Below, one piece after another: positions 29,970-47,059 of a stretch of DNA of 64,000 bases. A program made the position numbers and the translations under genes. Every line of letters begins with the position of its first letter. Position 1 is the first letter of the stretch. The DNA comes from Caulobacteraceae bacterium (GTDB taxonomy: Bacteria; Pseudomonadota; Alphaproteobacteria; Caulobacterales; Caulobacteraceae). Under the pieces are notes generated by a model that saw only the letters and a program-made list of their open reading frames with translations, was not told the origin of the DNA and did not search any database. Where the stretch lies: contig JAIEQC010000050.1 of the NCBI GenBank assembly GCA_019748055.1, forward strand, positions 24,817-88,816, given 5' to 3'.

Positions 29970-30079
29970 CACCTGTGCGGTCTCGTGCCCGTCCGACCGG
30001 AAGTATGAGGCTGTCCCCACATTGCCGGGCAGTGACGCTGGTCTGAATGGTATCGCATACTGGCTGAGAACCCGGAGGG

Positions 30080-31171: not shown

Positions 31172-31175
31172 AGGG

Positions 31176-31631: not shown

Positions 31632-32607
31632 AGAGCTCTCCCAAGGTACCACGAAGTGCGCGATCGGCGGCGTCCCATAGTTCGGACGGGAAGAATCCCG
31701 GCGAATAGGCGATGATCGCATCTTCGATCCGGTCGACTACGCCGCCACGCCGAAGCGCCATCGCCACGCTGCGAATTCGCGCGATGACGGCCTCGGCCGG
31801 CGGATCGAGCCGCTCAGCTCGTTCTGACCAATCCCCGTCGCCATCGAACCGGTTATTGAAGTAGTCCATATCCACGTGGAGGAGCACGGGACCGGAGGCA
31901 AGGTTCTCGATCCATTCGCTGATGTCCGGGGTGAGCATGTAGCGCCCCGCACCGCAGCCAACTGCCGGATGTAGCCTGATGGCCGGACGTCTGGCATCGA
32001 GATCGATGAGATCATCCTCCTGCAGATGCGGCTGGATCTCGAAGAGGGCGGTTGATGCAGCTTTCGGCGGCTGACAGAGGTGCCTAACCTCTGCGTTTGG
32101 AAAAGCGTGCAGCACCGGCGTCAGGAAGCTGCCCATCCCGACCGCGCCGCTCCCGAGGGCCCGTCGGACGCTTTCCGGCTCCCCGAAATCGAAAAGCCCG
32201 CCGGCAATCGGATCACGCCAGCCGCCGTCGCCCACGAACAGACGCGGCGACATCAGGTCACGATGATCATCGACGTGCAGAATGGTCAGGTGCGCATCGC
32301 GACGTGTGCCGGAAGCTGCAGCCCAGCGGGCCCAGCTGACCAATGTCCAAGTGTCGTAAAGCGCCGTCGTTACGCGGCCCTGACGCCGTACCGCCTCCAC
32401 CATCTGGCCAAGCCCGGGCGCCCAGCCCTTCAGGTGATCAGTCAGCAGTGGGTCAATGTGTCGTTCTGGCTCGTCCGGCCACCGAAAGTTCAGGCGCCAG
32501 CCGCCAGCTTCAGGCGTCGCCACCGCGTCACGATCGCAGAAGTAGTCTCTCAGGCGTGCGTGCCGGGCGTGTGGTTCTTCCGGCAACCGGTCCCATGGCA
32601 ACCACAC
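31624..32607 (-). CDS. arginase/deacetylase-fold-like protein (UPF0489-like)
   Basis: LHVDDHRDLMSP and LLHVDMDYFNN resemble the metal-binding DxHxD and DxD motifs of the ureohydrolase fold. A GTG at 32607 lies 2 nt after the radical SAM stop. The tracked ORF extends to 32685. Confidence 0.55.
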   Translation of the reverse strand: MWLPWDRLPEEPHARHARLRDYFCDRDAVATPEAGGWRLNFRWPDEPERHIDPLLTDHLKGWAPGLGQMVEAVRRQGRVTTALYDTWTLVSWARWAAASGTRRDAHLTILHVDDHRDLMSPRLFVGDGGWRDPIAGGLFDFGEPESVRRALGSGAVGMGSFLTPVLHAFPNAEVRHLCQPPKAASTALFEIQPHLQEDDLIDLDARRPAIRLHPAVGCGAGRYMLTPDISEWIENLASGPVLLHVDMDYFNNRFDGDGDWSERAERLDPPAEAVIARIRSVAMALRRGGVVDRIEDAIIAYSPGFFPSELWDAADRALRGTLGELYA

Positions 32608-32609
32608 GC

Positions 32610-34736: not shown

Positions 34737-34744
34737 CGGCGCGC

Positions 34745-34909
34745 CTACGAGCGATTGTGGCGGTGATGCATCCGGTCGTAGCTGGTGATCACTTCGCTCG
34801 CCTGAGCGTCCGAGCGAAGGCGGCCCTGCAACCGCTGAAGAGCCGGGTTGGCCATCTTGGCCTTAAGGACGGACGTCCGGAGCGTGGTAGTCTCTGCAGC
34901 TTGCATCAT
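34745..34909 (-). CDS. 54-aa putative RiPP precursor peptide (not in ORF track)
   Basis: The minus strand reads GAAGGAGATCGCT-ATG ATG.... Translation: MMQAAETTTLRTSVLKAKMANPALQRLQGRLRSDAQASEVITSYDRMHHRHNRS. Strong RBS. The stop lies 8 nt before the radical SAM ATG. Confidence 0.6.
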   Translation of the reverse strand: MMQAAETTTLRTSVLKAKMANPALQRLQGRLRSDAQASEVITSYDRMHHRHNRS

Positions 34910-35019
34910 AGCGATCTCCTTCAAGATAGAGCTAACCTCGATCTACGAATACCGCAACGTGCAATTCCAACCTCCTGAGGGCTCCGCTGTACTAGAGGCT
35001 CGCCTCTCGACCCGCTGGG

Positions 35020-35343
35020 CTAAGGCGCTGACGCAACAGGCGCGCCCCTCGACCGGGGCACGTTCTTCAGACCGACTTGCCGCTCCAAAGCGGCGACATC
35101 CCAACGCAGAAGCGGCAGGTGGCGCTGCGCCATCCTCAGGTTCTGTGGGGCGCCATCGAGGTCGCCGTTCGCGATTTGCGTCGCCGCCAGAGAGTGCGCG
35201 CAGAGGAATTGGCTCCGGGACGGCCCGGACCCGCTGAGGCGTTTTCCGCACTTCGGAGTTTCCTGGGCGGGCAAGTCTTCCTGTTGGCGCAACAGCGTCG
35301 CGGTGAGCAAGTCTCCGGGATCCACCCTTAGCCGACCGACCAC
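35020..35343 (-). pseudogene. remnant paralogous to the C-terminus of the wHTH-TPR regulator at 35986-37212
   Basis: HSLAATQIANGDLDGAPQNLRMAQRHLPLLRWDVAALERQVGLKN aligns with RALAAAQVATGDLEGALQNLRTAQRRMPFLRRDILVLERQIALRDN. The DNA is also alignable (about 35080-35200 vs 36030-36170). Confidence 0.5.
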
Positions 35344-35367
35344 TCCCGACCCATTGCAGACTTCGGG

Positions 35368-35754
35368 TCAGCCGAGTTTCAAACCTTGGGGTTGCGCACC
35401 CGTCACACCGACAATCCGGGGACCGCGCACGAGCCAGCCCAACGTCACGGGGACTAGGTGAAGGAGATGGCTGAGGTGAAAGACATGCGGTTCCAACCCT
35501 TCCCAGCGCGGGCCAAAGTTCAGCGACAAGACCATCAATACGATCCACCAGCCGGTGAGATTTGCGTTCTTCAAGCGTTGAAACGTCAGAACCACGAGGG
35601 CGATGTAGATCGGCAAACCGGCGAGCGTAGCTATCCAGTCTGAAGCTCCCAGCATCCTCAATAGGACAGGGATAACGATGATTGCCGCGATGAGTGCGAC
35701 ACTGGCCCAGCGGTAGTTCTGGATTGCGCACAGACGGTGAAAGAACGTCGCCAT
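35368..35754 (-). CDS. DUF805-family inner membrane protein
   Basis: 128 aa, three to four TM helices, and QRLKNANLTGWWIVL, which resembles the DUF805 RLHD..SGWW motif. Confidence 0.7.
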   Translation of the reverse strand: MATFFHRLCAIQNYRWASVALIAAIIVIPVLLRMLGASDWIATLAGLPIYIALVVLTFQRLKNANLTGWWIVLMVLSLNFGPRWEGLEPHVFHLSHLLHLVPVTLGWLVRGPRIVGVTGAQPQGLKLG

Positions 35755-35985
35755 GAGCGAAGGCTAGCAGTGGTGGAGTAAGCAAACCACCCTCAGGCGA
35801 GCGTCGGCTTCCCACCCTCAGCGGACATTCGCACCGTCCGCTCTAGAGAGGGGCCCCATGTAGTCTACAAGGACGTCTGATGCGCATTTTGGCCGGCGGA
35901 GCGAGGGACGTGGGCGCCATCGGTCAGTGACGCCGGGTGGGGACCGCGCGCATCCTCGTGGCGTTCCCGTCTGGCGCGTCCCGGT

Positions 35986-37212
35986 TCAGGAGGCAGAGGT
36001 AGCTGCCTCGGGATTGTCCCTCAAAGCGATCTGCCGCTCCAAAACGAGGATGTCACGACGAAGGAAGGGCATGCGGCGCTGCGCCGTCCTGAGGTTCTGC
36101 AGCGCCCCCTCCAGGTCGCCCGTGGCGACCTGCGCTGCCGCAAGCGCTCGCCGGTACTCGGGCATCTCGGGATTGGCGGCTACGAGAGACCGAGCCTCCG
36201 TCAGTGCTGCGCGGGCGACCCGTCGGTCATGGCCATGCTCCATCACCAGCCGGACGTCGATCCTAACCCTTAGCGCCCGGGCGAGTGTGAACCGCGGCTG
36301 CACTTCTAGAGCGGATTGCAGCAGCTCCCGCGCAGCCAGCAGGCTGGTTTCATCACCATTGCGGGCAAGCTCCGAAGCGGCGAGATAAAGTTCTTTCGCT
36401 TTCCTCGGCTGCACCAAGAACCCGTTCTCTTGCATCGGCAGACCCAGCACCTCGACTTGGGCGTGGATGGCCGAGACGAAGTGCGACACCGCGCGATCCC
36501 ACGAACCCTCCCGCAGCGGATAGGTTTCGGCCCAGAGCACGAGCCCTGTGGCCGTCTCCACGAGCTCCAGTGCCAAGGCTTCATCGCCCGCAAGCGCGAT
36601 CCTTCGCATGCCGACCACGAGATCCGTGGAACCTTCGCCGTCGCCCGCAACAACAGCTAGGCCAGACAGCCGGGACAAGTCCCGAACCAACAGGCGCCGC
36701 GCGCTGCCCAATGCCTCCGCCGACGTCGAGGTGTCGACGGCGGCTTCGCTTCTGATCGAAAGCGTCAGTGGCTTGGCCGCCCCTGCGCCGCCGTGCTGGA
36801 CGAGGACGATGAGGAGGACCGCGCAAATCGCAGCCACCGCTATTGCGGCCTGTACTCTTCTGCCCCTCCAAAGCGAGGCGCCGATCCCGGCCTGTTCGTA
36901 GGTGCCGAGCGACGTCGTCAGGCGGTAGCCGACGCTTCGTACAGCCTCAATCCCGTCGCGCATCCCCAGGGCGGCCAAGCCGTCGCGCAGCATCTTGGCT
37001 CTCTGTTTGACCGTCTCCCGCGAAACCTGGGCACCCCAGACCCGCTGCTCTATCTCCGCGAATGAGACCGGCTCCGGTGCGCGTTCGCCGAGCACACGGA
37101 GCAGACGGAATGACAAATCCGCCAACTTCACCTCCCGCCTGCCGCAACGGACGGTGCGCGTCGCGTCGCAGACATCCAGCTCCGCCGCAAGGTTTCGATC
37201 TCTATATGTCAT
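35986..37212 (-). CDS. CadC/OmpR-type winged-helix regulator with TM anchor and TPR-like C-terminal domain
   Basis: The ATG at 37212 gives MTYRDRNL.... The wHTH is LSFRLLRVLGERAPEPVSFAEIEQRVWG...VSRETVKQRAKMLRDGL...VRSVGYRL. One TM segment (AAIAVAAICAVLLIVLV) is followed by helical repeats. Confidence 0.75.
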   Translation of the reverse strand: MTYRDRNLAAELDVCDATRTVRCGRREVKLADLSFRLLRVLGERAPEPVSFAEIEQRVWGAQVSRETVKQRAKMLRDGLAALGMRDGIEAVRSVGYRLTTSLGTYEQAGIGASLWRGRRVQAAIAVAAICAVLLIVLVQHGGAGAAKPLTLSIRSEAAVDTSTSAEALGSARRLLVRDLSRLSGLAVVAGDGEGSTDLVVGMRRIALAGDEALALELVETATGLVLWAETYPLREGSWDRAVSHFVSAIHAQVEVLGLPMQENGFLVQPRKAKELYLAASELARNGDETSLLAARELLQSALEVQPRFTLARALRVRIDVRLVMEHGHDRRVARAALTEARSLVAANPEMPEYRRALAAAQVATGDLEGALQNLRTAQRRMPFLRRDILVLERQIALRDNPEAATSAS

Positions 37213-37318
37213 TGAGCACTCGCAGTGTTTTCCATCCTTCACCAATATTTTCTTTGCCGCCGCCACCGGCCACCTCAGGACTGCGGGCCAAGCGTCAAAG
37301 CCAAGGTGAGAAGAAAAC

Positions 37319-38752
37319 ATGCGTGTAACAAGGCGTACGGTCGCGGTGGGGGCAGCGGCGTGGCTCTTCGCCCCCGGAGCAACCGCTCTTGAGGACCCGG
37401 ATGGTCCCCTCAGCGCCGCTGAGGTGTCACAGATCATCCTCGAGGCGGTCGCCAAGGCGAACGGCGTGCCCGGGATGTCGGCTGCGGTGGTGAGGGACGG
37501 TTGCGTCCTGTGGACCGGGACGACTGGCTCCCGGGACCTTGAGCGCGGCTTGGCGGTCGTGCCTGAGACGGCTTTCCGGCTGGCCAGCGTCTCCAAGCTG
37601 ATCACCGCCACAGCAGCAGCAAGGCTTGAGGATGAGGGCCTGCTCGACGTCAATGCTCCGATCCAAGATACAGTCCATTACCTGAGCGGCGCCTGGCCCA
37701 TCATGACCGCCCGCCAGCTTGCGTCCCACACGGCGGGGTTGCCCCACTACCAAGCCATCGACACTGACCGCGGCAGGCAGTCATTCGCATCTGTACGCGA
37801 AACGGTCGCCCTTTTCGAAAGGCGTCCGCTGCTCTCCTCGCCGGGGGAGCGCTACTCTTACAGCTCCTGGGGCTACACGCTGCTCAGCGCCGTCGTTGAG
37901 GAAGCCGCCGGCGTGCCGTTCCTTGACTATGTCGCGACTGACGTCACCGCCGGCCTAGACATCGTGCCCGACACCGCACCCGCCGCCGCGACCGACACGC
38001 TCGCCTATGAGATCGAAGGCGGCTCCCCGAAACGGGCGGCTCCGCATGACTACAGCTATTCCTGGGGAGGCGCCGGCTTCCGCGCACCCGCTTTCGCCCT
38101 CGCCCTGTTCGGCGACCGTGTGATGTCCCCGGCCTTCCTTTCGGATGCGGCGCGCGAGGCGATGTGGACCCCCACGCGCACGAATGATGGACAGGCGGTG
38201 ACCGACGACGACAGCGAGGTCGCCTTCGGTTGGCGCATCACATCCTCCATCGACGGGGAGCGCATGGCCCACCACGCGGGCGCCGCGATCGGAGCGCGCA
38301 GCGTTCTGCTTGTCTACCCGGAACAGCGTGTCTCCGTCGCCTTGCTGTCCAACGCGTCGTGGATTTCGTCCATCGAGCGGACAGCTGAGATGATTTCCGC
38401 ACCGATCAGAGACGTGCCTGCAGGTGCTGGCGACGCCCCATGCCCAGTGGGTGCACGCGCGTTCCACGGAACCTTCCAGGATGCGCACGTCACAGGAACA
38501 GTCCGCTTCCAACTGGAGGGCGGCCTGTGCCAAGGGTCGGTCTCGGCCGACAATGCTTTCGGCAGATGGCTGAACGGGTTCACGCAAAAGCCTCTCGCCG
38601 CCTTCGAGGTGATTGCCCTGAGGGCGGACGGTCGTCTCGACCGCGCCGCCTTCGTCTCCCCGATCGGGGCCCACGAGGTCAGGCGCGGACCCGAAGGAGG
38701 CTTCCAAGTGGACTTCGGCGGCGGTCGCAGCCTTGAGATAGTCCTGCAATGA
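37319..38752 (+). CDS. beta-lactamase-family serine hydrolase with extra C-terminal domain
   Basis: Signal-like N-terminus, SxxK motif in FRLASVSKLITA, YSYSSWGY, and a later HHAGAAIG. The C-terminal part of about 120 aa is unassigned. Confidence 0.85.
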   Translation: MRVTRRTVAVGAAAWLFAPGATALEDPDGPLSAAEVSQIILEAVAKANGVPGMSAAVVRDGCVLWTGTTGSRDLERGLAVVPETAFRLASVSKLITATAAARLEDEGLLDVNAPIQDTVHYLSGAWPIMTARQLASHTAGLPHYQAIDTDRGRQSFASVRETVALFERRPLLSSPGERYSYSSWGYTLLSAVVEEAAGVPFLDYVATDVTAGLDIVPDTAPAAATDTLAYEIEGGSPKRAAPHDYSYSWGGAGFRAPAFALALFGDRVMSPAFLSDAAREAMWTPTRTNDGQAVTDDDSEVAFGWRITSSIDGERMAHHAGAAIGARSVLLVYPEQRVSVALLSNASWISSIERTAEMISAPIRDVPAGAGDAPCPVGARAFHGTFQDAHVTGTVRFQLEGGLCQGSVSADNAFGRWLNGFTQKPLAAFEVIALRADGRLDRAAFVSPIGAHEVRRGPEGGFQVDFGGGRSLEIVLQ

Positions 38753-38862
38753 GCCCCGGCCGGTCGTCTTCAGCTTGAGCGCAAGGGGGGCGGCCTTGCG
38801 CCAGGAGCGGAACTTCGAGCTGATGCGGAAAGCCGACTGTCGAACTGTACCAGCTCAATTGG

Positions 38863-39450
38863 TCATGTCGCGTTGAGACTGCGGCGCACAACAGCCGGAA
38901 GGCTCGTGCACATCTCCACCCGTTCACGCCCAATGCAGGCGATGACCTCTGCTACGTGGTGCGCCGCCACACGCATCCTCGCATCCACCAACGCTCCATA
39001 CAGTGCGTCGCCGAGGCCAGCCTCGCCTAGCCCAGCGCGGACCCCGGGCGTTAACAGCAGGTCAATGGTCGACGCGACCACAAGGCCAGGAAAACGGACA
39101 GCCGCCAGCGACGTCGCCTTGCGCTCGTCGATATAGGCCACCACGCCGGCCCGTTCGGCGTATACCAGCGTCGCCGCCTCACCGTCATCCAAGGTCTGGG
39201 CTGCATCACCGGCCAGAAGGCTAAGAAAAACGTCTTCATCCTGGGGGTCTAGATCGACCACCTGCATCAGGCCGAGATGCAGCCAGACCGCCACGTGATC
39301 AGCCGCATGCCGCCCCTTATCGCGGCCTCGCTCCAGTTCGGTGAGCGCGGTCCGCGTGATTTCGAGGCTTCCGTCGTAGAGCCCCAGAATCCTGTCAGCG
39401 CAGCCCGTGGCGGCGAGATTGATCCAGACGCTCGCATCGGCGACGGCCAT
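38863..39450 (-). CDS. PIN-like nuclease-fold protein
   Basis: N-terminal VADASVWINL (Asp), DDGEAATLVYA (Glu) and YIDERKA (Asp) spaced as in PIN-like domains. Starts 7 nt after the XRE-ImmA stop. Confidence 0.55.
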   Translation of the reverse strand: MAVADASVWINLAATGCADRILGLYDGSLEITRTALTELERGRDKGRHAADHVAVWLHLGLMQVVDLDPQDEDVFLSLLAGDAAQTLDDGEAATLVYAERAGVVAYIDERKATSLAAVRFPGLVVASTIDLLLTPGVRAGLGEAGLGDALYGALVDARMRVAAHHVAEVIACIGRERVEMCTSLPAVVRRSLNAT

Positions 39451-39457
39451 GCGCGCC

Positions 39458-40627
39458 TCAGAGCATCGGACGGGAGGACGCGTTATCGACCTCCTCGTCC
39501 TCGAAGGCGTCGATCAACTCGCGGATTTCCACCCGATCGAGCTGCAAGAGCCCCGCCAACTGGCCTTCGCTCAGGAGGTTCTTCTTCCAGGCCTCGCGCG
39601 CCAGCATGCCAAGCCGCAATGACACGGGCCGGGCCGCGTCCGCCTTTCGGGCGTCGACGCTCCAAGCGTCGCCGAGGACCTGCCGCGCCTGGTCGTTGGT
39701 GATTCCGCCGTTGTGCTCGAACCAATCCCAGGTTCCAACCTTGGTCAGGCCAAGCTCTTCCAGTCGGCGAACCATGGCTTCGCGCGCCACGCCAAAGGCA
39801 TGGGCGAGCACGATGACGTGGCGCCGTGTCAACGCGGAACTGCCAGCGGTGACATCCCGGAACATGGCCATTACGGAGCGGGCCGGGGTGAGAAAAGCCC
39901 GGGCGAAGGCGTTCGCGTAGCGCTCTTCGCGACTGGCTTCGGGTGAGCCGTCGTAGAGGGCGTCCGGTGCCCGCCGGGTCGAGACCAAATGGCCAAGCTC
40001 GTGACCGCCGGTCTGGGCGCGGCGCTCGCGCGGGTGGGCGGCGTTCAGAAGAATGCAGGGACCGGCGGCCTCATGGTAGGCGTAGAGGCCAGAGATCTTG
40101 GCCGGCAGGCGGCGAACGAACACTCTGACGCCGAGCTGAAGTTCGAGCAGCGAGACGATGTCGTGCACCGGCGCTTGGCCGATGCCCAGCCACTGGCGCA
40201 ATTCAGCCGCGTCGTGCTCCGCCTGGAGGACTACGTCTCCAGGCATGAGCGGGCGCTCGGGCGGATCGTTTCGGGTGCGACGCACGCCGAGGAGATCCTC
40301 GAGTTCCAATTCTGCCTGGACGAGGGTGGTCAAGAGGGTGACGGCGCCTTCGACCCCAGCATCCTGCTCGCCCATCCGTCGGAAGCGGGGCTTGAGATCG
40401 ACCTGCACCGCTTCACGTCGCAACAGCGCGTTCAATGAAACGCCATATAGCGACGCCAGCCGCTGCAGCTCGTCGAGCTTGGCCCTACGTTGGCCCTGCT
40501 CGATGGCGACCACAGTCGTGCGAGCTACCTCAAGGGCCGCGGCGGCGGCTGCCTGGGTGATCCTTGCCGCCTCCCGCGCGATCCGCAGCCGCTCGCCGAC
40601 TTCATGAGGGGATAGCGCTTCACTCAT
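39458..40627 (-). CDS. XRE HTH - ImmA/IrrE zinc-metallopeptidase fusion
   Basis: The ATG at 40627 gives MSEALSPHEVGERLRIAREAARITQAAAAAALEVARTTVVAIEQG (the HTH). The peptidase motif is TGGHELGHLV (HExxH). The start overlaps the upstream stop (ATGA). Confidence 0.85.
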   Translation of the reverse strand: MSEALSPHEVGERLRIAREAARITQAAAAAALEVARTTVVAIEQGQRRAKLDELQRLASLYGVSLNALLRREAVQVDLKPRFRRMGEQDAGVEGAVTLLTTLVQAELELEDLLGVRRTRNDPPERPLMPGDVVLQAEHDAAELRQWLGIGQAPVHDIVSLLELQLGVRVFVRRLPAKISGLYAYHEAAGPCILLNAAHPRERRAQTGGHELGHLVSTRRAPDALYDGSPEASREERYANAFARAFLTPARSVMAMFRDVTAGSSALTRRHVIVLAHAFGVAREAMVRRLEELGLTKVGTWDWFEHNGGITNDQARQVLGDAWSVDARKADAARPVSLRLGMLAREAWKKNLLSEGQLAGLLQLDRVEIRELIDAFEDEEVDNASSRPML

Positions 40628-42000
40628 TGCTGGACGGCCGAAAGGCCCCGGACGAAGGAGGTCGGCGCGAGCGCTGCAAGGAACCGATGCCATTCGGCTG
40701 CGTGACGGGCGAGCAGCGAACGCAACAACGCTTCGATGGCGACCGGATCTTCGTGCAGGACCTCTGCAGTTTCCCGGGCTACGCGCCGCACAGCGCGGAC
40801 CGCGCTCGGCGCGGTTGCTAACTCGGCGAGATGATCCATGTGCAAAACGCCGGCGATCGCGTGCTCGCGCATGGACTCGGTGATGCCAGTGAACCCGGGG
40901 GCCGCGCCAGCCTCCAAGGTCGGCGCAGAGAGATCTTCCCAGATGTAGGAGTCAGCCGGTTCGGCCAAGCCGGCGTTGAACATGCTCATGCGGCGCAGCA
41001 TGCAGGCCGCACAGATGCCGCACTGGCGGCGATGGCTATCGACGGAGGCGTGCCGCGACTGCTGCCAGCAGGAGCGGGTGTCGTCCCAGGTCGGCGGGTT
41101 AGGAAGGGCAGCGGCCTCGGCTAGAGTCTCGGCCTTAGTGGACCATAGCCGAGGGTATTCGTAGCGCGCACTCGACCCCACCAGGGCCTCGAAGAGAACT
41201 TCCATCCGTGTGGTGAAGAGCGGGTGGACGCGGTAGTCCGGGTAGATCTGCCCGCTGACGGCCATCATCGGGCCGAAGGCGCCTTGGCCGCTCTCGGTCA
41301 CGACGATGCGCTCGACGTTCGCAATCTGTGCCGCGACTCCGGTGACGACGGCGAACTTGAAGCCCCGCGACCGGGCGGACGATTCCTTGCGAGCCGGAAC
41401 GCGGACCTTGTAGGGCACGAGGGTGAAGGCGGCCCGGCGACGTTCGCGAAGCGGATCGTCAACGCCAACGGAACCGAGCCGCACGCGCACCAAGGCCGAG
41501 CCGCCCAGAGCTTGTGCGATAAGGGCGTGGACAGCGCGGGAATCCAGCCCATCGCTATAGGGCATGATGGCCTTGGCATTGGCTGGCAACTCCAGGCTCA
41601 GAGGACGCATGGTCTCGGCGCTCTTCTGGCGCGCGACGAAGCTGAACGACCAGGTGTCGCCGGTGAGGAAGGTCAAGGCGTCCTCGAGGGCGCTCTGGAC
41701 CGGAGCCGACGACCAAAGGCCCGGATCGTGCACGGCGACGCGGACGTTGAAGGTCCGTGCCCAAGAGACGGTCGAGCGCGCCTTGGCCGCGTCGCAATAT
41801 TCCGTCGTCGCCGCCACCACCAAGAGGTCGAAAAGCTCCGGGCGCCAATTCGAGAAGAAGTAGGTCTCCAGCCCTTCGGTCGACAGGCGGATCGCGGCGC
41901 CGAGTTCGGCAAGCTCAGCGCCGGGGCGGACCTGAACCCCGGGCTCAACGATGTCCACGACCATGGGCTCATCGACCAGTCGGACAGCAACGGTGGTCAC
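40624..42000 (-). CDS. QueC-like PP-loop ATPase with N-terminal extension and Zn-ribbon
   Basis: PYSDGLDS is a variant of the SGGxDS PP-loop. SCWQQ...x17...CGICAACMLRR resembles the QueC SCY...CGxCxxCxLR zinc site. The N-terminal domain of about 140 aa is unassigned. GTG start overlaps the upstream stop (GTGA). Confidence 0.7.
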   Translation of the reverse strand: MTTVAVRLVDEPMVVDIVEPGVQVRPGAELAELGAAIRLSTEGLETYFFSNWRPELFDLLVVAATTEYCDAAKARSTVSWARTFNVRVAVHDPGLWSSAPVQSALEDALTFLTGDTWSFSFVARQKSAETMRPLSLELPANAKAIMPYSDGLDSRAVHALIAQALGGSALVRVRLGSVGVDDPLRERRRAAFTLVPYKVRVPARKESSARSRGFKFAVVTGVAAQIANVERIVVTESGQGAFGPMMAVSGQIYPDYRVHPLFTTRMEVLFEALVGSSARYEYPRLWSTKAETLAEAAALPNPPTWDDTRSCWQQSRHASVDSHRRQCGICAACMLRRMSMFNAGLAEPADSYIWEDLSAPTLEAGAAPGFTGITESMREHAIAGVLHMDHLAELATAPSAVRAVRRVARETAEVLHEDPVAIEALLRSLLARHAAEWHRFLAALAPTSFVRGLSAVQQ

Positions 42001-42563
42001 AGGCGCACTCCTTCGTCGAGACCGGTCCGATCGATGGGCGAAGTTAGATCGCGGGCCGACACGCCGGCCACCAGCGCCGAGGCGAGCCCCTTCAAATCCA
42101 CGGCAGCCATCGACTCGGTCAGCCGCGCGCGCATCCCGGCGGCCTTACCCTGCGAGGCCTCGCGCCGGTAGTGCTCCTCCACCTGACGTTGGCCGCGGTC
42201 CGCGCGCTCGACGAGAGTCGCGAACGCGGCGTCCTCCAAGGCTTCAGCACCCCGACGGCCGTCACGCAATGCGTCCAGGGCGTTATCGGCTAGCAGCGCC
42301 TCCATAGGGTTGGAGTGCTGCGCGCGCAGGCGGCAGACCTCCTGCTTGGCGACTTCAAGCATCAGCAGGCCCCTTTCATCGTCGCCGAGGGCGGCGCGCA
42401 TCTGGCGCAAGAAGGACTGGCCGATTTCACGCCAGTCTGCCGCCAGCGCCGCCGGGACCGCCTCCGCCACTTCCGCATTGGTGTGGGCGGCGTTGCCGGC
42501 AAGCTTCGCCAGAGCCTTCCATTTGGTGCTCATCTTCAGGGTCTTGTAGGGGCCGTCGCTCAT
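41997..42563 (-). CDS. hypothetical helical protein (first gene of QueC-like operon)
   Basis: 188 aa, Ala/Glu/Arg-rich, predicted helical. No motif recognised. Confidence 0.6.
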   Translation of the reverse strand: MSDGPYKTLKMSTKWKALAKLAGNAAHTNAEVAEAVPAALAADWREIGQSFLRQMRAALGDDERGLLMLEVAKQEVCRLRAQHSNPMEALLADNALDALRDGRRGAEALEDAAFATLVERADRGQRQVEEHYRREASQGKAAGMRARLTESMAAVDLKGLASALVAGVSARDLTSPIDRTGLDEGVRL

Positions 42564-42811
42564 GCAGGCATCCTCGAATGTCAGGATGAATGCCCGAGTC
42601 GTCCGGCAATGTCAAATATTCCCACCATCTGCCTGACAATGTCAGATCCGGGCGGCAAACGATCTTTGACAGCGGGTAGGATTGGTGCCGACTAGGGGAC
42701 CTTCCCAACGTCTGCGTGGAGTCAGATGCGGCACTGATTCAGGTTCCGACCCGAGAGCGGACGGTGCGAACGTTCGCCAGAGTTAGGATCAAACGCTGAT
42801 AGCCGTAGGCG

Positions 42812-43174
42812 TTACCGGCTGGCGAGAACGAAGGTATTGCCCTCGTGGTCTTTAAACTTGGCGAAAGTTCCCCACGGCTGCGCTTCCGGTGGGCCTTCGA
42901 ACTCGACCCCCCGCTCGCGCAGCTGGCGATAGGTGTAGTCGACGTCGTCGCAGCCGAACGAGCCATTGAAGAACGTGCCGACGCGATCCTCCTGGCCCTC
43001 CGGGGTGAAGAGGACGATTCCCGTCTGAGCTCCGGGGATCGCCAATTCGATCCACCTCTGGGCCCCGAACGGCTGGTCCGTGGCCACGGCGAACCCCACC
43101 TTCTGCGTCCAGAAGGCAAGCGCCGCGTCTTGATCCCGGGTCGGCACGCCGACGAATTTGAGCTGCTTGATCAT
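42812..43174 (-). CDS. VOC/glyoxalase-family protein
   Basis: 120 aa. The KFVGVPTRDQDAALAFWTQKVGF...WGTFAKFKDHEGNTFVL pattern is typical of glyoxalase I-like fold proteins. Confidence 0.85.
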   Translation of the reverse strand: MIKQLKFVGVPTRDQDAALAFWTQKVGFAVATDQPFGAQRWIELAIPGAQTGIVLFTPEGQEDRVGTFFNGSFGCDDVDYTYRQLRERGVEFEGPPEAQPWGTFAKFKDHEGNTFVLASR

Positions 43175-43244
43175 GGTGGTCTCCTCGGGATCGATCTACG
43201 GCGAGGCCTTGCGGAGACAAAGGTGATCATCCATTGCTATAGCA

Positions 43245-43538
43245 ATGGCTGCCGCTTACACGCTCGACGCCTATGTTCTCGACACGCTGATGCGCGACCT
43301 CGTCGGTCACGATCGCCGCCCTTCCGCCTATCTGGTGTACCTCGTGGTCCTGACGCAGGAAGACAGCTTGGGCTGTCGACTGAGCCACGCGGAATTGTCG
43401 GCCCGCACCGGCCTCTCCAAAAGGGCCGTCCAGGACGCCTTGGCGCACCTCAAGCGGCGAGAACTGATCTCAAACAAGTCGACCGGGCCGACGCAAATCA
43501 CATGGCATAAAGCCCAGCGACCTTGGCGTCGTGCATGA
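43245..43538 (+). CDS. small winged-helix/HTH protein
   Basis: 97 aa. LSHAELSARTGLSKRAVQDALAHLKRRELI is an HTH-like segment. Divergent from the VOC gene. Confidence 0.55.
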   Translation: MAAAYTLDAYVLDTLMRDLVGHDRRPSAYLVYLVVLTQEDSLGCRLSHAELSARTGLSKRAVQDALAHLKRRELISNKSTGPTQITWHKAQRPWRRA

Positions 43539-43697
43539 GGTCCGCGAGCCCTTCCGGCCCCTGCTCGCACCTCGGCTGCATTCAGGGCGAAGGATGCATG
43601 GCCAACCCGCTGCAAGTCGCTTTCGAAGCGAGCCTCCCCATGAAGGCCTGACAGCCAGTCTAAATGACGGCCGGTCGATGCCGTTGGAGCAGGTTCG

Positions 43698-44543
43698 TCA
43701 GTGAGCCATGAGCACCGGGCACGGGGGAGCTTGCAGGACACTGCGGGTGGCTCCTCCCAGAATGAACTCGCTCATCCGGGAATGCCCGAACGCGCCCATG
43801 ACGAGAAGGTCGAAGCGCTGCCCGGCCACATAGGCCGACAGGACCTCGCCAATCTTGCGACCGCTCGCGTCCTCTTCGTAGACCCTCGCGTTCACGTCGT
43901 TAAGGGCGAGCCGCAGCGCGAGCCGGCTGGCTGACGAAGTCGCCGGGATCGACTTTTCATTGACGACGATCAACACCACCACCTCCTCCGCGCGCCGCAG
44001 CAGCGGCATGGCGTGGGCGATCGCACTGGCCGCGGGAGCGCCGAAATCCCACGCGACCACGATGCGTCGGAGCGATGGGCGCTCGCCAAGCGATTCTGCC
44101 GGGACGACCAGAACAGGCCCTCCACCCCCGAAGGCAATCGCCTCGGCGACGTCCTGTTGTTGGCCAAGCGAAGCCAGCAGAGGAACGACAGCGACGTCGC
44201 GCAGGCGGGCCGTCCTGGCGGCTAAAGACGGAATGTCGTGACCTGAGCAGATCGTGGTGACCGCGGCGACTGAACCGAAGTGGGTTTCGAGGCCCGAGGC
44301 CAGTGCGGTGTACCGTCGCGCCGTTTCCGCGCTCCGGGCGCGTTGCGCGGCCGCCATCGCCGGCAGATTCAGCAGCGCATTGGCCAAGGGGTTTGAAGGG
44401 GCCTGGATGTCCACCTCGAAGATCTCGAGCGAGAGACTGGCCTCGAGGAGTTGAGAAAACTGATGAGCCCAGGACAGAGCCTCGTCCGGCACGGGGTCCG
44501 GGTAGGTCACCAGTTGCAGAAGCACGTCGCGCACGTGGGGCAT
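43698..44543 (-). CDS. tandem universal stress protein (UspA family)
   Basis: Two Usp-like halves. The C-terminal DLLVMGAFGHSRMSEFILGGATRSVL is the Usp ATP-binding motif. The ATG at 44543 was chosen as the start. Confidence 0.8.
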   Translation of the reverse strand: MPHVRDVLLQLVTYPDPVPDEALSWAHQFSQLLEASLSLEIFEVDIQAPSNPLANALLNLPAMAAAQRARSAETARRYTALASGLETHFGSVAAVTTICSGHDIPSLAARTARLRDVAVVPLLASLGQQQDVAEAIAFGGGGPVLVVPAESLGERPSLRRIVVAWDFGAPAASAIAHAMPLLRRAEEVVVLIVVNEKSIPATSSASRLALRLALNDVNARVYEEDASGRKIGEVLSAYVAGQRFDLLVMGAFGHSRMSEFILGGATRSVLQAPPCPVLMAH

Positions 44544-44595
44544 CCTCCGGCTGAGGAGCATGCCCGACGCATTGTTGAGAGACCGGGCTCCCATG

Positions 44596-44617
44596 CGCAT
44601 CGAGCATGCTCGATGCG
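44596..44617. promoter_or_regulatory. 22-bp perfect palindrome (candidate operator)
   Basis: CGCATCGAGCATGCTCGATGCG lies just upstream of the Usp start. It shares the half-site CGCATCGAG with 44950-44958 and 45126-45134. Confidence 0.4.
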
Positions 44618-45127
44618 GACCGACATCACGATCACTGGATCGTCAGAGGGGCCCGGGCCGCTCGTATAGGCGTACCGAGGCATCCGATTTCGGTCAACGC
44701 AGGGACCGGGGTGAGCAGCGCTGCGCATCGCGTGTTGATGCCCCCTCAGCCCTCGCCGCACAGATCAGGACCTGGTTTGTCTGATCTCGGTTAGGAAGGC
44801 GCGATCAGGCGGAGAGGGGCCGGCCGTCCTATGCCGCCACCGCCGACAGGCGTCATGGATTCCTCAGCGCTACCAGCGCCTTGGCGTGAACGACGGTGCC
44901 CTCTGCATGCATGCCGCAGCCTGGTAGGCATCTCTGTGCGCCGGTGCCTCGCATCGAGGAGTTGGGCGACGTCCGCGCGGCATTAGAAACCCGGCCAAAG
45001 CGGACATGAGCGCTGATTATGCGCCTCTTCACCACCCCTTACTGGCCGAAGTGGACCAGAAAGGTGATGCTCCTGCTGCGGACCGGGCCCCTCTGGCGAC
45101 TTTCCCTCAGTCGCGATGTCGGTCCGC

Positions 45128-45143
45128 ATCGAGCGCGCTCGAT
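45128..45143. promoter_or_regulatory. 16-bp perfect palindrome related to 44596-44617
   Basis: ATCGAGCGCGCTCGAT, preceded by GC, giving GCATCGAGC. Lies about 70 nt upstream of the DUF465 gene start. Confidence 0.4.
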
Positions 45144-45212
45144 TCGGTCAGGGCCTCATCAACCCAGTACCTGTCCACATCGGGGGCGCTCCCTAACCCA
45201 GAGGAGCGAACC

Positions 45213-45398
45213 ATGACCCGAACCTACATCCACCGACTGCACGGGCGTCACGCCCTGCTGGAAGGCGCCCTGGCCCAGGAACTGCGACGTCCGTCCCCCG
45301 ACGCGGCGACGCTGGCGGCGATCAAGAAGCGCAAGCTGCAGCTCAAGGACCGCCTGCGGGCGCTTGAGCTGAAGCTGGCCTCGCAGGGCCTCAACTGA
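45213..45398 (+). CDS. DUF465 (YdcH-like) small protein
   Basis: The ATG at 45213 follows a GAGGAG RBS. The 61-aa HRLHGRHALLEGALAQELRRPSPDAATLAAIKKRKLQLKDRL is the DUF465 pattern. Confidence 0.7.
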   Translation: MTRTYIHRLHGRHALLEGALAQELRRPSPDAATLAAIKKRKLQLKDRLRALELKLASQGLN

Positions 45399-45476
45399 CG
45401 TCGACCCGACCACCGGTGATCGCTTGACCCCGCGCCTGAGATCAGGCTGCGGGGTCACCTTTGCGCGTAGGACGCC

Positions 45477-46454
45477 ATGGATTTCCTGACACAAGAATTC
45501 CTGACCAAGCCCGTGTGGATGTGGGCGGCCTTCCTCACCATCGTCGCCGTGCTGCTGGCGCTGGACCTCGGCGTCCTGCACCGCAAGCATCGCGAGATCG
45601 GCGTGCGCGAGAGCCTCGCCCTGTCGGCGGGATATCTGACGCTGGGCCTCGCCTTCGGCGGCTGGGTCTGGACCTCGCTCGGCGCCCAGGCCGGCATGGA
45701 ATACCTGACCGGGTTCGTCGTGGAGAAGTCGCTGGCGATGGACAACGTCTTCGTCATCGCGATGATATTCGCCTACTTCGCCATCCCGCCGCACCTTCAG
45801 CATCGGGTGCTGTTCTGGGGCATCCTGGGCGTGATCGTGCTGCGTGCGATCATGATCGCCGGCGGCGCCGCCCTGGTCAGCGAGTTCGGCTGGGTTCTCT
45901 ACGTCTTCGCCGCCTTCCTGATCGCGACGGGCGTAAAGATGCTGCTGATGGCCGACAAAGAGCACTCGCTTGAGGACAACGCCCTGCTCAAGCTGCTTCG
46001 CAAGCGCCTTAGCGTGACGTCGGACCTGCACGGCGAGCGGTTTTTCGTGAAGGCTCCGCATCCCAGGACGGGCAAGCTGGCGACGTTCGCGACGCCGCTG
46101 TTCCTCGCGCTCGTCCTGATCGAGGTGGCCGACGTCATCTTCGCCGTGGATTCCGTCCCGGCGATCTTCGCCATCACCACGGACCCCTACCTCGTCTACA
46201 CGTCCAACATTTTCGCGATCCTCGGCCTGCGGGCGCTCTACTTCGCCCTCGCGGCCATCATTCACCGCTTCGCATACCTCAAGTACGCGCTGGCCGTGCT
46301 CCTGATCTTCATCGGCTCGAAGATCTTCCTCGCCGACCTGTTCGGATTGGAGAAGTTCCCGCCGCAGGTCTCGCTTGGCGTGACCTTCGCCATCCTAGCG
46401 GCAGGCGTCTTCTGGTCGCTGTGGAAGACGCGGAACGGGAGGGCGACCTCATGA
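45477..46454 (+). CDS. TerC-family integral membrane protein
   Basis: 325 aa with EKSLAMDNVFVI and ADVIFAVDSVPAIFAIT (the duplicated TerC motifs). Confidence 0.9.
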   Translation: MDFLTQEFLTKPVWMWAAFLTIVAVLLALDLGVLHRKHREIGVRESLALSAGYLTLGLAFGGWVWTSLGAQAGMEYLTGFVVEKSLAMDNVFVIAMIFAYFAIPPHLQHRVLFWGILGVIVLRAIMIAGGAALVSEFGWVLYVFAAFLIATGVKMLLMADKEHSLEDNALLKLLRKRLSVTSDLHGERFFVKAPHPRTGKLATFATPLFLALVLIEVADVIFAVDSVPAIFAITTDPYLVYTSNIFAILGLRALYFALAAIIHRFAYLKYALAVLLIFIGSKIFLADLFGLEKFPPQVSLGVTFAILAAGVFWSLWKTRNGRATS

Positions 46455-47059
46455 TGTCGGAAGTGGATCCGCTGATCGCGGGATTCGAGCGGGGTCTGGC
46501 CTCGACCCCGCCGTCCCGGATGCCGTGGTCGACGCCCCGACGGCCGCACACGGCCGTCGTCGCCTGCTCGGACGCCGGCGTAGATCCGGAGCGGCTGTTC
46601 GACGCCTCGCCCGGGGAACTCTACGTCATCCGCAACCTCGGCGGCCTGGTGCCCGAGTATGCGCCGGACGGGGGCTGCCACGGGACCAGCGCGGCTCTCG
46701 AGTATGCGGTGCGCGTGCTCAAGGTGCGGCGCGTGGTGTTGCTTGGACATCTCGGTTGCGATGGGGTCCACGCCATGATCAACGGACCGCTGAAGAACGC
46801 TCAGGATTTCGTCTTCCCGTGGATGGAGCAGGCGGAAACGGTGATCTGGAACCTCCACCGACTGGAGCCGGGCCGCTCGGTCCAGGACCAGCTTGAAGAC
46901 GACGTCTTGAGGCTGTCGTACGCGAACCTGCTGGGCTTTCCCTGGGTACGCGATCGCGTTTCGTCCGGCAGTCTCAGGCTTGACGCCTTCAAACACGACG
47001 CGAAGCGCAGCCGGCTTCTGGCGGTCATGTCCGAAGGCAGTAACGGCGTCGGCGAGTGA
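46451..47059 (+). CDS. divergent beta-carbonic-anhydrase-like protein
   Basis: The ATG overlaps the TerC stop (ATGA). VVACSDAGVDPERLF...ELYVIRNLGG...LLGHLGCDG parallels the beta-CA motifs CxDSR / RNxGN / HxxCG, but with DAG in place of DSR. Confidence 0.75.
   Translation: MMSEVDPLIAGFERGLASTPPSRMPWSTPRRPHTAVVACSDAGVDPERLFDASPGELYVIRNLGGLVPEYAPDGGCHGTSAALEYAVRVLKVRRVVLLGHLGCDGVHAMINGPLKNAQDFVFPWMEQAETVIWNLHRLEPGRSVQDQLEDDVLRLSYANLLGFPWVRDRVSSGSLRLDAFKHDAKRSRLLAVMSEGSNGVGE

Follow-up and report, generated by a model that had tools for sequence, protein, structure and literature searches.

What kind of system is encoded by four adjoining minus-strand genes, g1-g2-g3-g4 (42563..38863), in a bacterium of the Caulobacteraceae? 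The window that we analyzed is a stretch of 64,000 nt around these genes, which the initial annotation had read as a candidate defence or conflict system composed of a helical protein, a QueC-like enzyme, an XRE/ImmA protease and a PIN-like nuclease. We favor, at a probability of about 55%, an autoregulated, horizontally mobile four-gene conflict system, most likely directed against phages, which would make it a second class of Qat architecture. Judged by its sequence, the cassette seems to be a so far undescribed relative of the Qat anti-phage system; surveys of Qat architectures in the literature list qatA-D combinations only (PMC13434339).

A GTGA overlap links g1 to g2, an ATGA overlap links g2 to g3, and 7 nt separate the end of g3 from the start of g4. 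These junctions, the ribosome-binding sites and the synteny in 66 loci bear out the translationally coupled operon described earlier: the four genes are one unit and travel together. Relatives with 76-84% nucleotide identity (L001-L009) could be aligned only across 38870-38969..42615-42649, and the nucleotide alignment revealed no flanks common to the window and these relatives. Because homology to the relatives stops at the limits given in Table 1, we regard the locus as a discrete mobile cassette of ~3.8 kb. Its own neighbours in the window are housekeeping-type genes and no defence island. Among the ORFs that we scanned to both sides of the cassette there is no queD, queE or queF, in agreement with the initial annotation, and no QatA, QatD or CD-NTase.

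Table 1. Positions of the cassette and its features in the window
Feature	Position	Strand	Remarks
Whole mobile cassette	38870..42649	-	limits set by the extent of homology to relatives
Promoter/operator region	42564..42649	-	palindromes, half-site, -35-like element, RBS
Perfect palindrome CTGACA-T-TGTCAG	42645..42633	-	
Second site TTGACATTGCCGG	42615..42603	-	with -35-like TTGACA
Half-site CTGACA	42584..42579	-	just 5' of the RBS
RBS GAGGA	42575..42571	-	7 nt upstream of the g1 ATG at 42563
g1, 188 aa, all-helical	41997..42563	-	ATG start; candidate substrate/partner of g2
g2, 458 aa, QatC-family PP-loop ATP pyrophosphatase (QueC superfamily)	40624..42000	-	GTG start
g3, 389 aa, XRE-type HTH and M78 (ImmA/IrrE) zinc peptidase	39458..40627	-	ATGA overlaps g2 stop
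g4, 195 aa, PIN-domain (VapC-like) nuclease	38863..39450	-	GAGG upstream; candidate toxin/effector

In all 66 genome loci examined these four genes recur in an unchanged order, except where a contig breaks off within the block or, in a few cases, where the copy has decayed. The loci span Alpha-, Beta- and Gammaproteobacteria. Each of the four ORFs is conserved at the protein level, and the order is kept down to identities of 28% (g1), 43% (g2), 55% (g3) and 34% (g4). Rhizobiales plasmids also carry the cassette: we drew four copies from the ~25 plasmid records matching both g2 and g4, and the block was present in each of them. Conjugative plasmids are frequent carriers, while the cassette was not found among IMG/VR viral contigs. 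Neither in the 66 loci nor in the four plasmid copies did homologues of g2 reside in a preQ0/queuosine operon. All computational checks proposed in the initial annotation spoke for its interpretation. Genes adjoining the cassette in other loci include GajA, SoFic, AriA, mad3, PDC-S24/S31, MmeI and Abi_2, as well as AbiEi/AbiEii/AbiJ and an OLD-type nuclease.

We then considered the enzyme encoded by g2, whose GTGA start overlaps the g1 stop and is preceded by AAGGAG. The PP-loop variant SDGLDS (residues 149-154, not SGGxDS) and the QueC-type zinc site (C311...C327-G-I-C330-A-A-C333-M-L-R-R), both pointed out in the initial annotation, are present and invariant in the family. QatC was the best match in PADLOC (8e-26) and in NCBIfam, and the PDB QatC structures 9zee and 9vlk match with E values of 1e-12 to 2e-17. 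The N-terminal ~140 aa, previously called unassigned, proved to be the QatC-specific extension: it aligns with 9zee/9vlk from residue 57 on, including the motifs D58, D70-x4-R75...W80-x-R82 and D115-x-W117-xxx-F121. Further, the invariant columns of g2 are common to canonical QatC and every cluster-2 (QatC) motif from PMC13329287 is found, so that g2 shares with QatC all signature motifs, the N-terminal extension, the zinc site with its RR and the catalytic Asp. These comparisons place g2 in the QatC branch of the QueC family, not as QueC itself, with the ATP site, the zinc site and the QatC catalytic Asp (D58) all intact. However, g2 differs from canonical QatC in several respects. It is 20-25% identical and forms a separate clade, its NCBIfam score of 99 bits compares with a cut-off of 280, its PP-loop reads SDGLDS, and [Y]xDYRxHP (Y253-P-D-Y-R-V-H-P in the window) replaces STRTTHP. 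In the sequence alignment a QueC/Cap9-like Y-x-D motif stands where canonical QatC has T-x-T, although its placement differs between MAFFT and HMMER alignments. The g2 clade also has a C-terminal extension of its own, unlike that of QatC, which is the QatB-binding surface, and this divergence fits a partner other than QatB.

The small all-helical protein encoded by g1 is the candidate for this partner. Its gene occupies the position of QatB, directly upstream of the enzyme gene and with its stop overlapping the start of the latter, as in qatB-qatC. Invariant features are the N-terminus M-S-D-G-P, W15 and E129-E130-H131, and the C-terminal tail is conserved and disordered. Codons 2-5 vary only synonymously among 59 distinct g1 genes, and the MSDGP terminus is under purifying selection; distant plasmid copies start with M[S/T]DGP. 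A strictly conserved extreme N-terminus is likewise a property of the Qat partner, but QatB begins with MGTS and its N-terminal Gly is essential, as it is in CdnD, whereas g1 would expose Ser or Thr after removal of Met. Moreover, g1 has no long disordered tail and its homology to QatB is undetectable (hhalign probability 0.1%). The AF2 model (pLDDT 88.7) had no match among PDB structures, and no Pfam, PADLOC or NCBIfam profile matched the protein. The homologue search returned 900 clusters, and among the 150 listed nearly all are about 188 aa long. From gene order and sequence, g1 can be described as a positional, non-homologous analogue of QatB. The earlier statement that the usual partners are absent thus holds for QatA, QatD and the CD-NTase, while QatB is replaced by this analogue. 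The suggestion that g1 is the modification target gains real support from the QatB position, the overlap with the enzyme gene and the invariant pentapeptide; by analogy, g1 is probably a small modification target of g2.

As a whole, the cassette resembles QatABCD also in having a nuclease gene within the operon and in its defence-type and plasmid contexts, but it lacks QatA (KAP NTPase) and QatD (TatD) and adds an XRE-M78 protein and a PIN nuclease. Type IV CBASS offers a second comparison. Like Cap9 with CdnD, g2 is a QueC-family enzyme that would modify the N-terminus of the protein encoded beside it, and it retains a Y-x-D type motif like that of Cap9 and QueC. However, a CD-NTase, Cap10 (TGT-like) and a cyclic-nucleotide effector are all missing from the cassette, g2, being of the QatC type, is long compared to the minimal Cap9 (~185 aa), and the acceptor N-terminus of g1 is not glycine.

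The second half of the cassette begins with g3, for which the proposed ImmA/IrrE-XRE fusion was confirmed by Pfam (Peptidase_M78 1.4e-16, HTH_3 1.7e-11), by PADLOC (RmrA 1.7e-29 as the best of many RmrA profiles, CapP 3.6e-14, CapH 8.8e-6) and by an intact, invariant HExxH (H209-E210-x-x-H213; E234/E235). The HTH spans residues ~9-70 and the M78 domain ~164-289, followed by a conserved C-terminal domain. NCBIfam assigns the protein to the spr1629-family repressor/antitoxins, and its closest solved relatives are 9vzy, ImmR and DdrO. It is probably the autorepressor and an antitoxin or sensor. A longer ORF start for g3 (411 aa) was rejected, as other loci give it no support.

For g4, the assignment as a PIN-like nuclease was upheld by Foldseek, in which the top matches of the AF2 model (pLDDT 93) were nearly all PIN-domain proteins, VapC among them (probability 1.0, TM of 0.6-0.69 on the target). 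With the invariant acidic residues D5, E38, D89/E91, D108 and D130, the model indicates that g4 folds as a PIN nuclease and that its acidic active site is intact. Homologues are named 'predicted nucleic acid-binding protein' or 'VapC family toxin' in their sources, and PADLOC gave a match to PDC-S70 (3e-5). The fold and the conserved acidic quartet are those of VapC; differences from VapBC are the absence of a VapB-type antitoxin from the cassette, a helical C-terminal extension of ~60 aa that follows the PIN domain, and the lack of any match to Pfam PIN models at E<=0.1. Taken alone, g3 and g4 look by sequence like a RosmerTA-type toxin-antitoxin pair (RmrT/RmrA), an HTH-M78 protein with intact HExxH followed by a putative toxin. 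However, RosmerTA consists of two genes, while here g1 and g2 always precede the pair in one operon, g4 matches none of the RmrT profiles in PADLOC, and the C-terminal ~100 aa of g3 lie beyond the RmrA match.

Next, we analyzed the region 5' of g1, whose upstream edge (42649) is the point where homology to the relatives starts. Of 60 distinct upstream regions, 59 contain the motif TGACA-N-TGTC[AG], located at -84..-78 and/or -52..-45, and distant plasmid copies keep it too. It occurs only 79 times in the 903 kb of loci, nearly always in cassette upstream regions. This distribution points to a system-specific palindromic operator that overlaps the promoter. Such operators are also found with CapH/CapP, ImmR/ImmA and DdrO/IrrE, which likewise combine an XRE repressor domain and an M78 protease with a stress- or defence-induced operon. 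In contrast to these, g3 fuses repressor and protease in one polypeptide and lies inside the operon that it presumably controls, coupled to the enzyme gene, not divergently upstream.

For an anti-phage conflict system of the Qat family we propose the following course. The HTH of g3 would bind the TGACA-N-TGTCA sites and repress the operon in the manner of ImmR, CapH and TA antitoxins. The g2 enzyme would bind g1 and, driven by ATP, ligate an activated carboxylate to its N-terminal amine, that of Ser2 once Met has been removed. The carboxylate would probably be 7-carboxy-7-deazaguanine (CDG), because g2 keeps Y-x-D in place of T-x-T. This reaction would be analogous to that of QatC on QatB and of Cap9 on CdnD; QatBC is the minimal unit, in which the essential QatB N-terminus sits in the QatC active site (PMC13279940; PMC13376578), and an N-terminal peptide of QatB bearing NDG has been detected by LC-MS/MS (PMC13639016). 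The modification would be coupled to the g3/g4 repressor/toxin pair, acting as a RosmerTA module in which g3 restrains both the PIN toxin and the promoter; ImmA-type antitoxins paired with PIN toxins are already known (PMC10440598). When the cell is infected or its DNA damaged, the control by g3 could be lifted through the state of g1, through an activated M78 protease or through both, so that the operon would be derepressed and the PIN nuclease freed, leading to cell arrest or destruction of the invader nucleic acid. Communication between the g1/g2 half and the g3/g4 half is what we infer here.

It is this communication that would be missing if two independent modules, a QatBC-like pair (g1 and g2) and a RosmerTA-type pair (g3 and g4), merely travelled together, a reading that we consider possible but rather unlikely. 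The first pair would then work alone as a minimal defence pair, as QatBC does against lambda, and g3 would additionally regulate transcription of the shared operon. CapH/CapP-type regulators are indeed attached to many unrelated defence systems, and HTH-M78 antitoxins with swappable toxins, PIN among them, are a known stand-alone class. QatBC by itself is also enough against some phages (PMC13279940). However, one half never occurred alone among the loci and plasmid copies that we examined, which span Alpha-, Beta- and Gammaproteobacteria and identities down to 28-43%, and searches with g2 and with g4 returned nearly identical sets of ~25 plasmid records. In translation, g2 and g3 are coupled by the ATGA overlap, in the window as in most loci, and the cassette has a single promoter/operator region. 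In addition, g3 is the most conserved of the four proteins (55-97% identity across loci), beyond what is expected of an interchangeable regulator.

Several loci have SOS/DNA-repair surroundings, which could indicate a role in the DNA-damage response instead of phage defence. In several Caulobacterales the cassette is inserted between imuB and dnaE2, and on plasmid pAoF64/95 it adjoins dinB, an SOS-response-associated peptidase and ligD. The cassette would then be a module of mobile elements, for addiction or regulation, that responds to DNA damage or stress and is not primarily anti-phage. In it, g3 would sense damage like ImmA, IrrE and CapP, the PIN protein would arrest growth, and g1 and g2 would adjust the response or modify some cellular target in place of g1. 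The frequency on conjugative plasmids would suit such a module, and M78/XRE pairs are classic damage-responsive switches (ImmA/ImmR), with DdrO and ImmR among the matches of g3. Nevertheless, we consider it improbable: these contexts are a minority, the other flanks are unrelated and many are recognised defence genes. The reading also overlaps with that of an anti-phage system, as a damage trigger is compatible with abortive infection (CapH/CapP-regulated CBASS).

A metabolic or biosynthetic operon under XRE control, in which g2 would be a genuine 7-cyano-7-deazaguanine synthase or a small-molecule amidoligase of another kind, is very improbable: RefSeq and JGI give g2 homologues that enzyme name, Pfam QueC matches just over its cut-off (27 bits) and the YPD motif is kept (aligned with YPD of QueC 2pg3), but TIGR00364 QueC gives 19.5 bits where its cut-off is 150, the QatC-specific set replaces the QueC motifs YxQxHxxE and VPxRN, canonical QatC does not complement a queC deletion (PMC13329287), the window cassette has neither queD/E/F nor folE neighbours, Rfam families, the preQ1 riboswitch included, are absent from 38000..43600, and g2 is accompanied by a protease-repressor and a PIN nuclease in a mobile cassette with unrelated flanks. 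Finally, the plasmid search showed a clear gap between the g2 clade of the cassette (37-48% identity) and canonical QatC (25-29%).

The ORF check bore out the minus-strand unit of four genes, junctions included, that the initial annotation had proposed as a candidate defence or conflict system; the genes are named g1 to g4 in order of transcription.

Genes of the four-gene cassette in the window, in order of transcription
Gene	Coordinates	Strand	Product and junction
g1	42563..41997	-	188 aa ORF
g2	42000..40624	-	458 aa ORF; GTG start within a GTGA overlap with g1
g3	40627..39458	-	389 aa ORF; ATGA overlap with g2
g4	39450..38863	-	195 aa ORF; 7-nt gap after g3

Shine-Dalgarno-like sequences precede g1, g2 and g4; g3 lacks one, in keeping with its translational coupling. 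The longer version of the g3 ORF (411 aa) was given no support by its relatives. When the window was compared with its closest relatives, nucleotide identity of 76-84% started at 42649-42615 and stopped at 38870-38969 with unshared flanks, and because the homology is confined to the cassette edges without a common flank, the cassette is a discrete mobile unit. Its GC content of about 0.66 is like that of its surroundings. The region 30000-47000, which includes the cassette, has a lower GC content (0.62-0.67) than its flanks (0.69-0.72) and carries accessory-looking genes (glycosyltransferase, GNAT, a 708-aa radical SAM protein, beta-lactamase-like hydrolase, Usp, TerC), and this whole stretch is possibly a larger accessory region. 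The search for tRNA genes in the whole window was negative, as was the Rfam search of 38000..43600.

Scanning a single genome for each species gave 66 loci, all of which carry g1-g4 in the same order and orientation, barring truncations at contig ends and a few decayed copies. They belong to Caulobacterales, Sphingomonadales, Rhizobiales, Inquilinus, Burkholderiales, Thauera and Sedimenticola. A tblastn search of plasmids matched 26 records with g4 and 25 with the g2 clade, the two sets being nearly identical, and the complete block was present in each of the four plasmid regions inspected, so that the synteny of the proposed unit holds in genomes and plasmids alike. The plasmid matches to g2 were bimodal, with 37-48% identity for the g2 clade, 25-29% for canonical QatC and none between. 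Since the other QatC-like plasmid matches labelled ‘synthase’ proved to be ordinary qatABCD, the QatC family occurs on plasmids in two architectures, qatABCD and the g1-g4 cassette. The viral contigs searched held no cassette copy. The cassette is widespread, with about 900 clusters at 50% identity for the g1 family; conjugative plasmids carry it, and so do Alpha-, Beta- and Gammaproteobacteria. Some copies look decayed: one locus (L018:6314-7006) has only 76 aa of g1 left and lacks the start of g2, and in Caulobacter sp. UC70_42 (NZ_CP171994.1; L003:9551-10012) g4 is shortened to 153 aa.

In the window the neighbours of the cassette are ordinary (glyoxalase, a small HTH protein, Usp, TerC, a beta-lactamase-like hydrolase and a response-regulator-like protein). 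Among 97 immediate neighbours in the other loci we observed no recurrent partner; recognised defence proteins are common there, among them GajA, SoFic, AriA, mad3, PDC-S24, PDC-S31, MmeI, Abi_2 and an ABC-3C domain. On plasmids, AbiEi/AbiEii/AbiJ and an OLD-type nuclease are among the neighbours. DNA-repair surroundings are seen for a minority of the loci. In several Caulobacterales the cassette has dnaE2 (1081-1086 aa) on one side and an imuB-like Y-family gene on the other (L007:3045-11681, L011:3044-11703, L016 and L019), and therefore within the SOS mutagenesis operon imuA-imuB-dnaE2, in opposite orientation; the right-hand side of this layout is also seen in L002 and L017. This recurrent position may reflect a hotspot for insertion, or else point to a link with DNA damage. 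On the Agrobacterium plasmid pAoF64/95 (L075:6614-12561) a DUF3800 gene, dinB, a gene for an SOS-response-associated peptidase (SRAP) and ligD come after the cassette, giving another neighbourhood of DNA-repair type. About 12 kb from the cassette in the window, an ORF at 54321-55505 (-) has weak matches to TrwB/TraG-type coupling proteins and AAA domains and may be the remnant of a conjugative element.

The g2 product carries both the SDGLDS loop and the C...CGICAAC-MLRR zinc motif that had been read from the sequence. Its best matches are QatC profiles in PADLOC (8e-26) and NCBIfam (2e-28), and its only solved relatives are QatC structures (9zee/9zef and 9vlk/9vll). For the QatC equivalog NF041925 it scores 99.3 bits, below the curated cut-off of 280, which explains why RefSeq names its homologues ‘7-cyano-7-deazaguanine synthase’. 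A published survey places QatC in cluster 2 of the QueC superfamily, defined by D63, D-x4-R...W-x-R, D-x-W/Y-xxx-F, the PP-loop, R-x-R-xxx-F/Y, E-x-G, H-P, P-x4-T-K, Cys...CGxCxxC..RR and Y376 (PMC13329287). In an alignment of the g2 clade and canonical QatC (six sequences, taken from qatABCD loci on plasmids), the following residues are invariant in both: D58 (D63 of QatC), D70/R75/W80/R82, D115/W117/F121, S149/G151/D153/S154, R210/R212/F214/F216, E236/G238, P260, P283/T288/K289, C311/C327/G328/C330/C333/R336/R337 and Y352. Only in the most distant plasmid copies is the H-P motif altered, its His being replaced by Phe; the second position of the PP-loop is D, E or N, not G. Judged by this motif set g2 is a member of the QatC family, in a clade distinct from canonical QatC at 20-25% sequence identity. 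As QatC-cluster motifs are invariant in both groups, the N-terminal domain, described as unassigned in the initial annotation, is the QatC N-terminal extension. The C-terminal extension of g2 differs from that of QatC, where it is the QatB-binding surface (PMC13279940).

A further difference is found in the substrate motif, which reads S-T-R-T-T-H-P in canonical QatC and [Y]-x-D-Y-R-x-H-P in g2. QueC and Cap9 hold the deazaguanine with a Tyr and an Asp, for which the QatC motif has its two Thr (PMC13279940, PMC13639016). We take the [Y]-x-D motif as a hint that the g2 clade may still bind a 7-deazaguanine carboxylate; HMMER pairs it with YPDC(R) of QueC 2pg3, while MAFFT aligns the region differently. 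The alternative that the cassette is a queuosine/preQ0 operon was rejected on a score of 19.5 bits against TIGR00364 (QueC; cut-off 150) and on its surroundings, in which, in line with the reported absence of queD, queE and queF, we found neither que genes nor a preQ1 riboswitch. Of the QueC motifs YxQxHxxE, VPxRN and YPDC, g2 keeps a YPD-like motif only.

The candidate partner of g2 is the small protein encoded by g1, for which we obtained no Pfam, PADLOC, NCBIfam or PDB sequence match. In structure models, which were built from database homologues, it is all-helical (AF2, pLDDT 88.7) with the final 11 residues disordered, and Foldseek against the PDB returned noise only, from a library that ends at 2026-04-08 and may predate the QatB structures. 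The N-terminus M-S-D-G-P is identical in 66 of 66 loci, the remainder falling to 28% identity. In 59 distinct genes codons 2-5 vary among AGT/AGC, GAT/GAC, all four GGN and all four CCN with zero amino-acid changes, and on this codon evidence the N-terminus is under purifying selection; distant plasmid copies start with M-[S/T]-D-G-P. W15, E129-E130-H131 and a C-terminal G-[LV]-[DN]-x-G-[VP] tail are conserved as well. The invariant E-E-H sits on the longest helix (residues 126-134), and the conserved tail R-x-G-[LV]-[DN]-x-G-[VP]-x-L (residues 178-188) is predicted to be disordered; the tail might serve the M78 peptidase or the PIN domain as a site of docking or cleavage. We also considered g1 as a diverged QatB. 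Canonical QatB sequences (n = 7) have 275-296 aa, start with MGTS and have a long low-complexity tail, and the profile-profile comparison of g1 with all seven was negative (hhalign probability 0.1%). A g1 profile searched against 1.84 billion representatives gave 900 clusters, and the 150 matches listed are nearly all of about 188 aa, with no protein of QatB length among them.

The remaining two proteins were recognisable by domain. As claimed for an ImmA/IrrE-XRE fusion, g3 combines an XRE HTH (HTH_3, 1.7e-11) with an M78 peptidase (1.4e-16), and H209-E210-x-x-H213 and a downstream Glu are invariant. It is the best conserved of the four proteins (55-97% identity across loci). Many PADLOC models of RmrA, the RosmerTA antitoxin, match it (best 1.7e-29, residues 12-295), as do the CapP and CapH profiles, and the nearest solved proteins are the full-length HTH-M78 protein 9vzy, ImmR and DdrO. 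The PIN-like nuclease proposed for g4 is corroborated by an AF2 model (pLDDT 93) with a PIN domain and a helical extension of ~60 aa, and by Foldseek, whose top matches (probability 1.0) are, with few exceptions, PIN-domain proteins, VapC among them. D5, E38, D89/E91, D108 and D130 are invariant; by its modelled fold and conserved acidic quartet, g4 is a PIN (VapC-like) protein. One homologue, from a Caulobacteraceae MAG, is 100% identical, which gives the window its taxonomic placement. Every g4 homologue (P0241-P0360) bears a precomputed Pfam label PF11848, in discrepancy with our fresh hmmscan against Pfam-A, which gave no match at E<=0.1 and did not reproduce that label.

Of 60 distinct regions upstream of g1, 59 contain a palindrome, TGACA-N-TGTC[AG], at fixed distances (-84..-78 and/or -52..-45), and it is kept in distant plasmid copies. 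In its usual form, TTGACA[AT]TGTCAG, it contains the -35-like hexamer TTGACA; an extra CTGACA often abuts the g1 RBS. The palindrome is rare, with 79 copies in 903 kb of fetched loci and a single exact match in the 64-kb window (42634..42644). As the scan for a sigma-70 consensus returned no strict promoter, and one implausible internal terminator only, it is the conserved TTGACA palindrome on which the promoter call stands. Since the g3 HTH is the sole DNA-binding domain in the cassette, the natural inference is that g3 would autorepress the operon via this putative operator. In CapH/CapP-type regulated defence operons the repressor binds a palindrome in the promoter and is cleaved by the protease upon a signal; the observations on the cassette that bear on this are the overlap of its palindrome with the -35-like TTGACA and the CapP and CapH matches of g3.

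The finding that QueC-family enzymes conjugate a 7-deazaguanine to protein N-termini is recent and comes from type IV CBASS. Cap9 modifies CdnD in like manner to the Qat case, and CapH/CapP is a damage-activated repressor-protease switch. In Qat, a 1:1 complex of QatB and QatC is the minimal defence unit (PMC13279940), the QatB N-terminus lies in the QatC active site with Gly2 being essential (PMC13279940, PMC13376578), and a QatB N-terminal peptide bearing the N-terminal deazaguanine mark (NDG) was detected (PMC13639016). HTH-M78 proteins are validated RosmerTA antitoxins known to pair with PIN toxins, and ImmR/ImmA is another damage-activated repressor-protease switch (PMC10440598). Given the QatC scaffold of g2 and the overlapping upstream gene for a small helical protein with an invariant N-terminus, we propose that g2 would ligate an ATP-activated carboxylate, probably 7-carboxy-7-deazaguanine, to the N-terminus of g1, much as the enzymes of Qat and type IV CBASS act on the N-terminal amine of their partner. 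The g3 protein would repress the operon and restrain g4, and the PIN nuclease would be released by a trigger that either passes through g1/g2 or is detected by the protease. We give this overall model a probability of roughly 55%, and as far as sequence analysis reaches, the general interpretation of the initial annotation is supported. The weakest step is the link between the g1/g2 and g3/g4 halves, for which the evidence is co-occurrence, translational coupling and a single promoter. The main rival explanation, that two independent modules travel together, concerns this link, and we consider it rather unlikely. A more far-reaching reading would be a toxin-antitoxin-like switch set by protein-nucleobase conjugation, in which g2 deazaguanylates g1. 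The acceptor would be Ser2/Thr2 of g1, or Gly4 after the M78 peptidase trims Met-Ser-Asp, and either the modified or the unmodified form of g1 would control the XRE-M78 protein, which in turn would release the PIN nuclease and derepress the operon; we advance this switch version tentatively, as rather unlikely.

The cassette is not a member of Qat, type IV CBASS, RosmerTA or CapHP as these are defined. The usual partners were correctly reported as absent: qatABCD has QatA, QatD and a helical QatB of ~275 aa with a long disordered N-tail that starts with MGTS, whereas g1 has 188 aa and starts with MSDGP, has no QatB match in PADLOC or NCBIfam, and the cassette gave no match to QatD/TatD, its nuclease candidate being the PIN domain. 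No QatA, KAP or P-loop NTPase is present in it or adjoins it in the plasmid copies inspected. Type IV CBASS consists of a CD-NTase, Cap9 and Cap10, whereas the cassette has no match to a CD-NTase or a TGT (Cap10-like). The RmrA-type HTH and M78 Zn-peptidase of g3 resemble RosmerTA, but that system has two genes, with an RmrT toxin neutralised by RmrA, while the cassette always has four, and g4 matches no RmrT profile. The enzyme step of the cassette would be like that of Qat or type IV CBASS, and its control and effector step like that of RosmerTA or CapHP. The cassette shares with Qat the enzyme family and probably a chemistry of the same kind; from the sequences, what appears new is that three of four components differ, that the acceptor N-terminus would be non-glycine, and that a repressor-protease is built in. 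Published surveys of Qat architecture give only qatA-D combinations (PMC13434339), the QueC-family survey including its supplement lists only KAP and TatD as QatC-cluster neighbours (PMC13329287), and our literature search found no paper joining QueC/QatC with M78 and PIN.

The cassette is a widespread second architecture on the enzyme family of Qat. Three structural papers of 2026 leave unexplained how QatBC, the core of qatABCD, stops phage, and the cassette should be easier to study, as its putative enzyme-substrate pair is linked to parts with readily measured outputs: a metalloprotease, a PIN toxin and a repressor whose operator is defined. Its enzyme keeps the QueC/Cap9-like substrate motif lost from canonical QatC, and the N-terminus of its putative acceptor is different and invariant. 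If the coupling is real, the role of Qat-type modification becomes directly testable and the chemistry of protein-nucleobase conjugation is broadened; if the switch version is true, the Qat family gains a version with a readable output and deazaguanylation extends past N-terminal glycine. The cassette lies in an annotation blind spot, with g1 to g4 labelled ‘hypothetical’, ‘7-cyano-7-deazaguanine synthase’, ‘XRE family regulator’ and ‘hypothetical’ in RefSeq and no PADLOC v2 profile properly covering g1 or g4. On three canonical qatABCD plasmids (L069, L070 and L072) the RefSeq qatB starts 60-90 codons late, the true ORF beginning with MGTS directly after qatA, which agrees with a published remark on qatB misannotation (PMC13279940).
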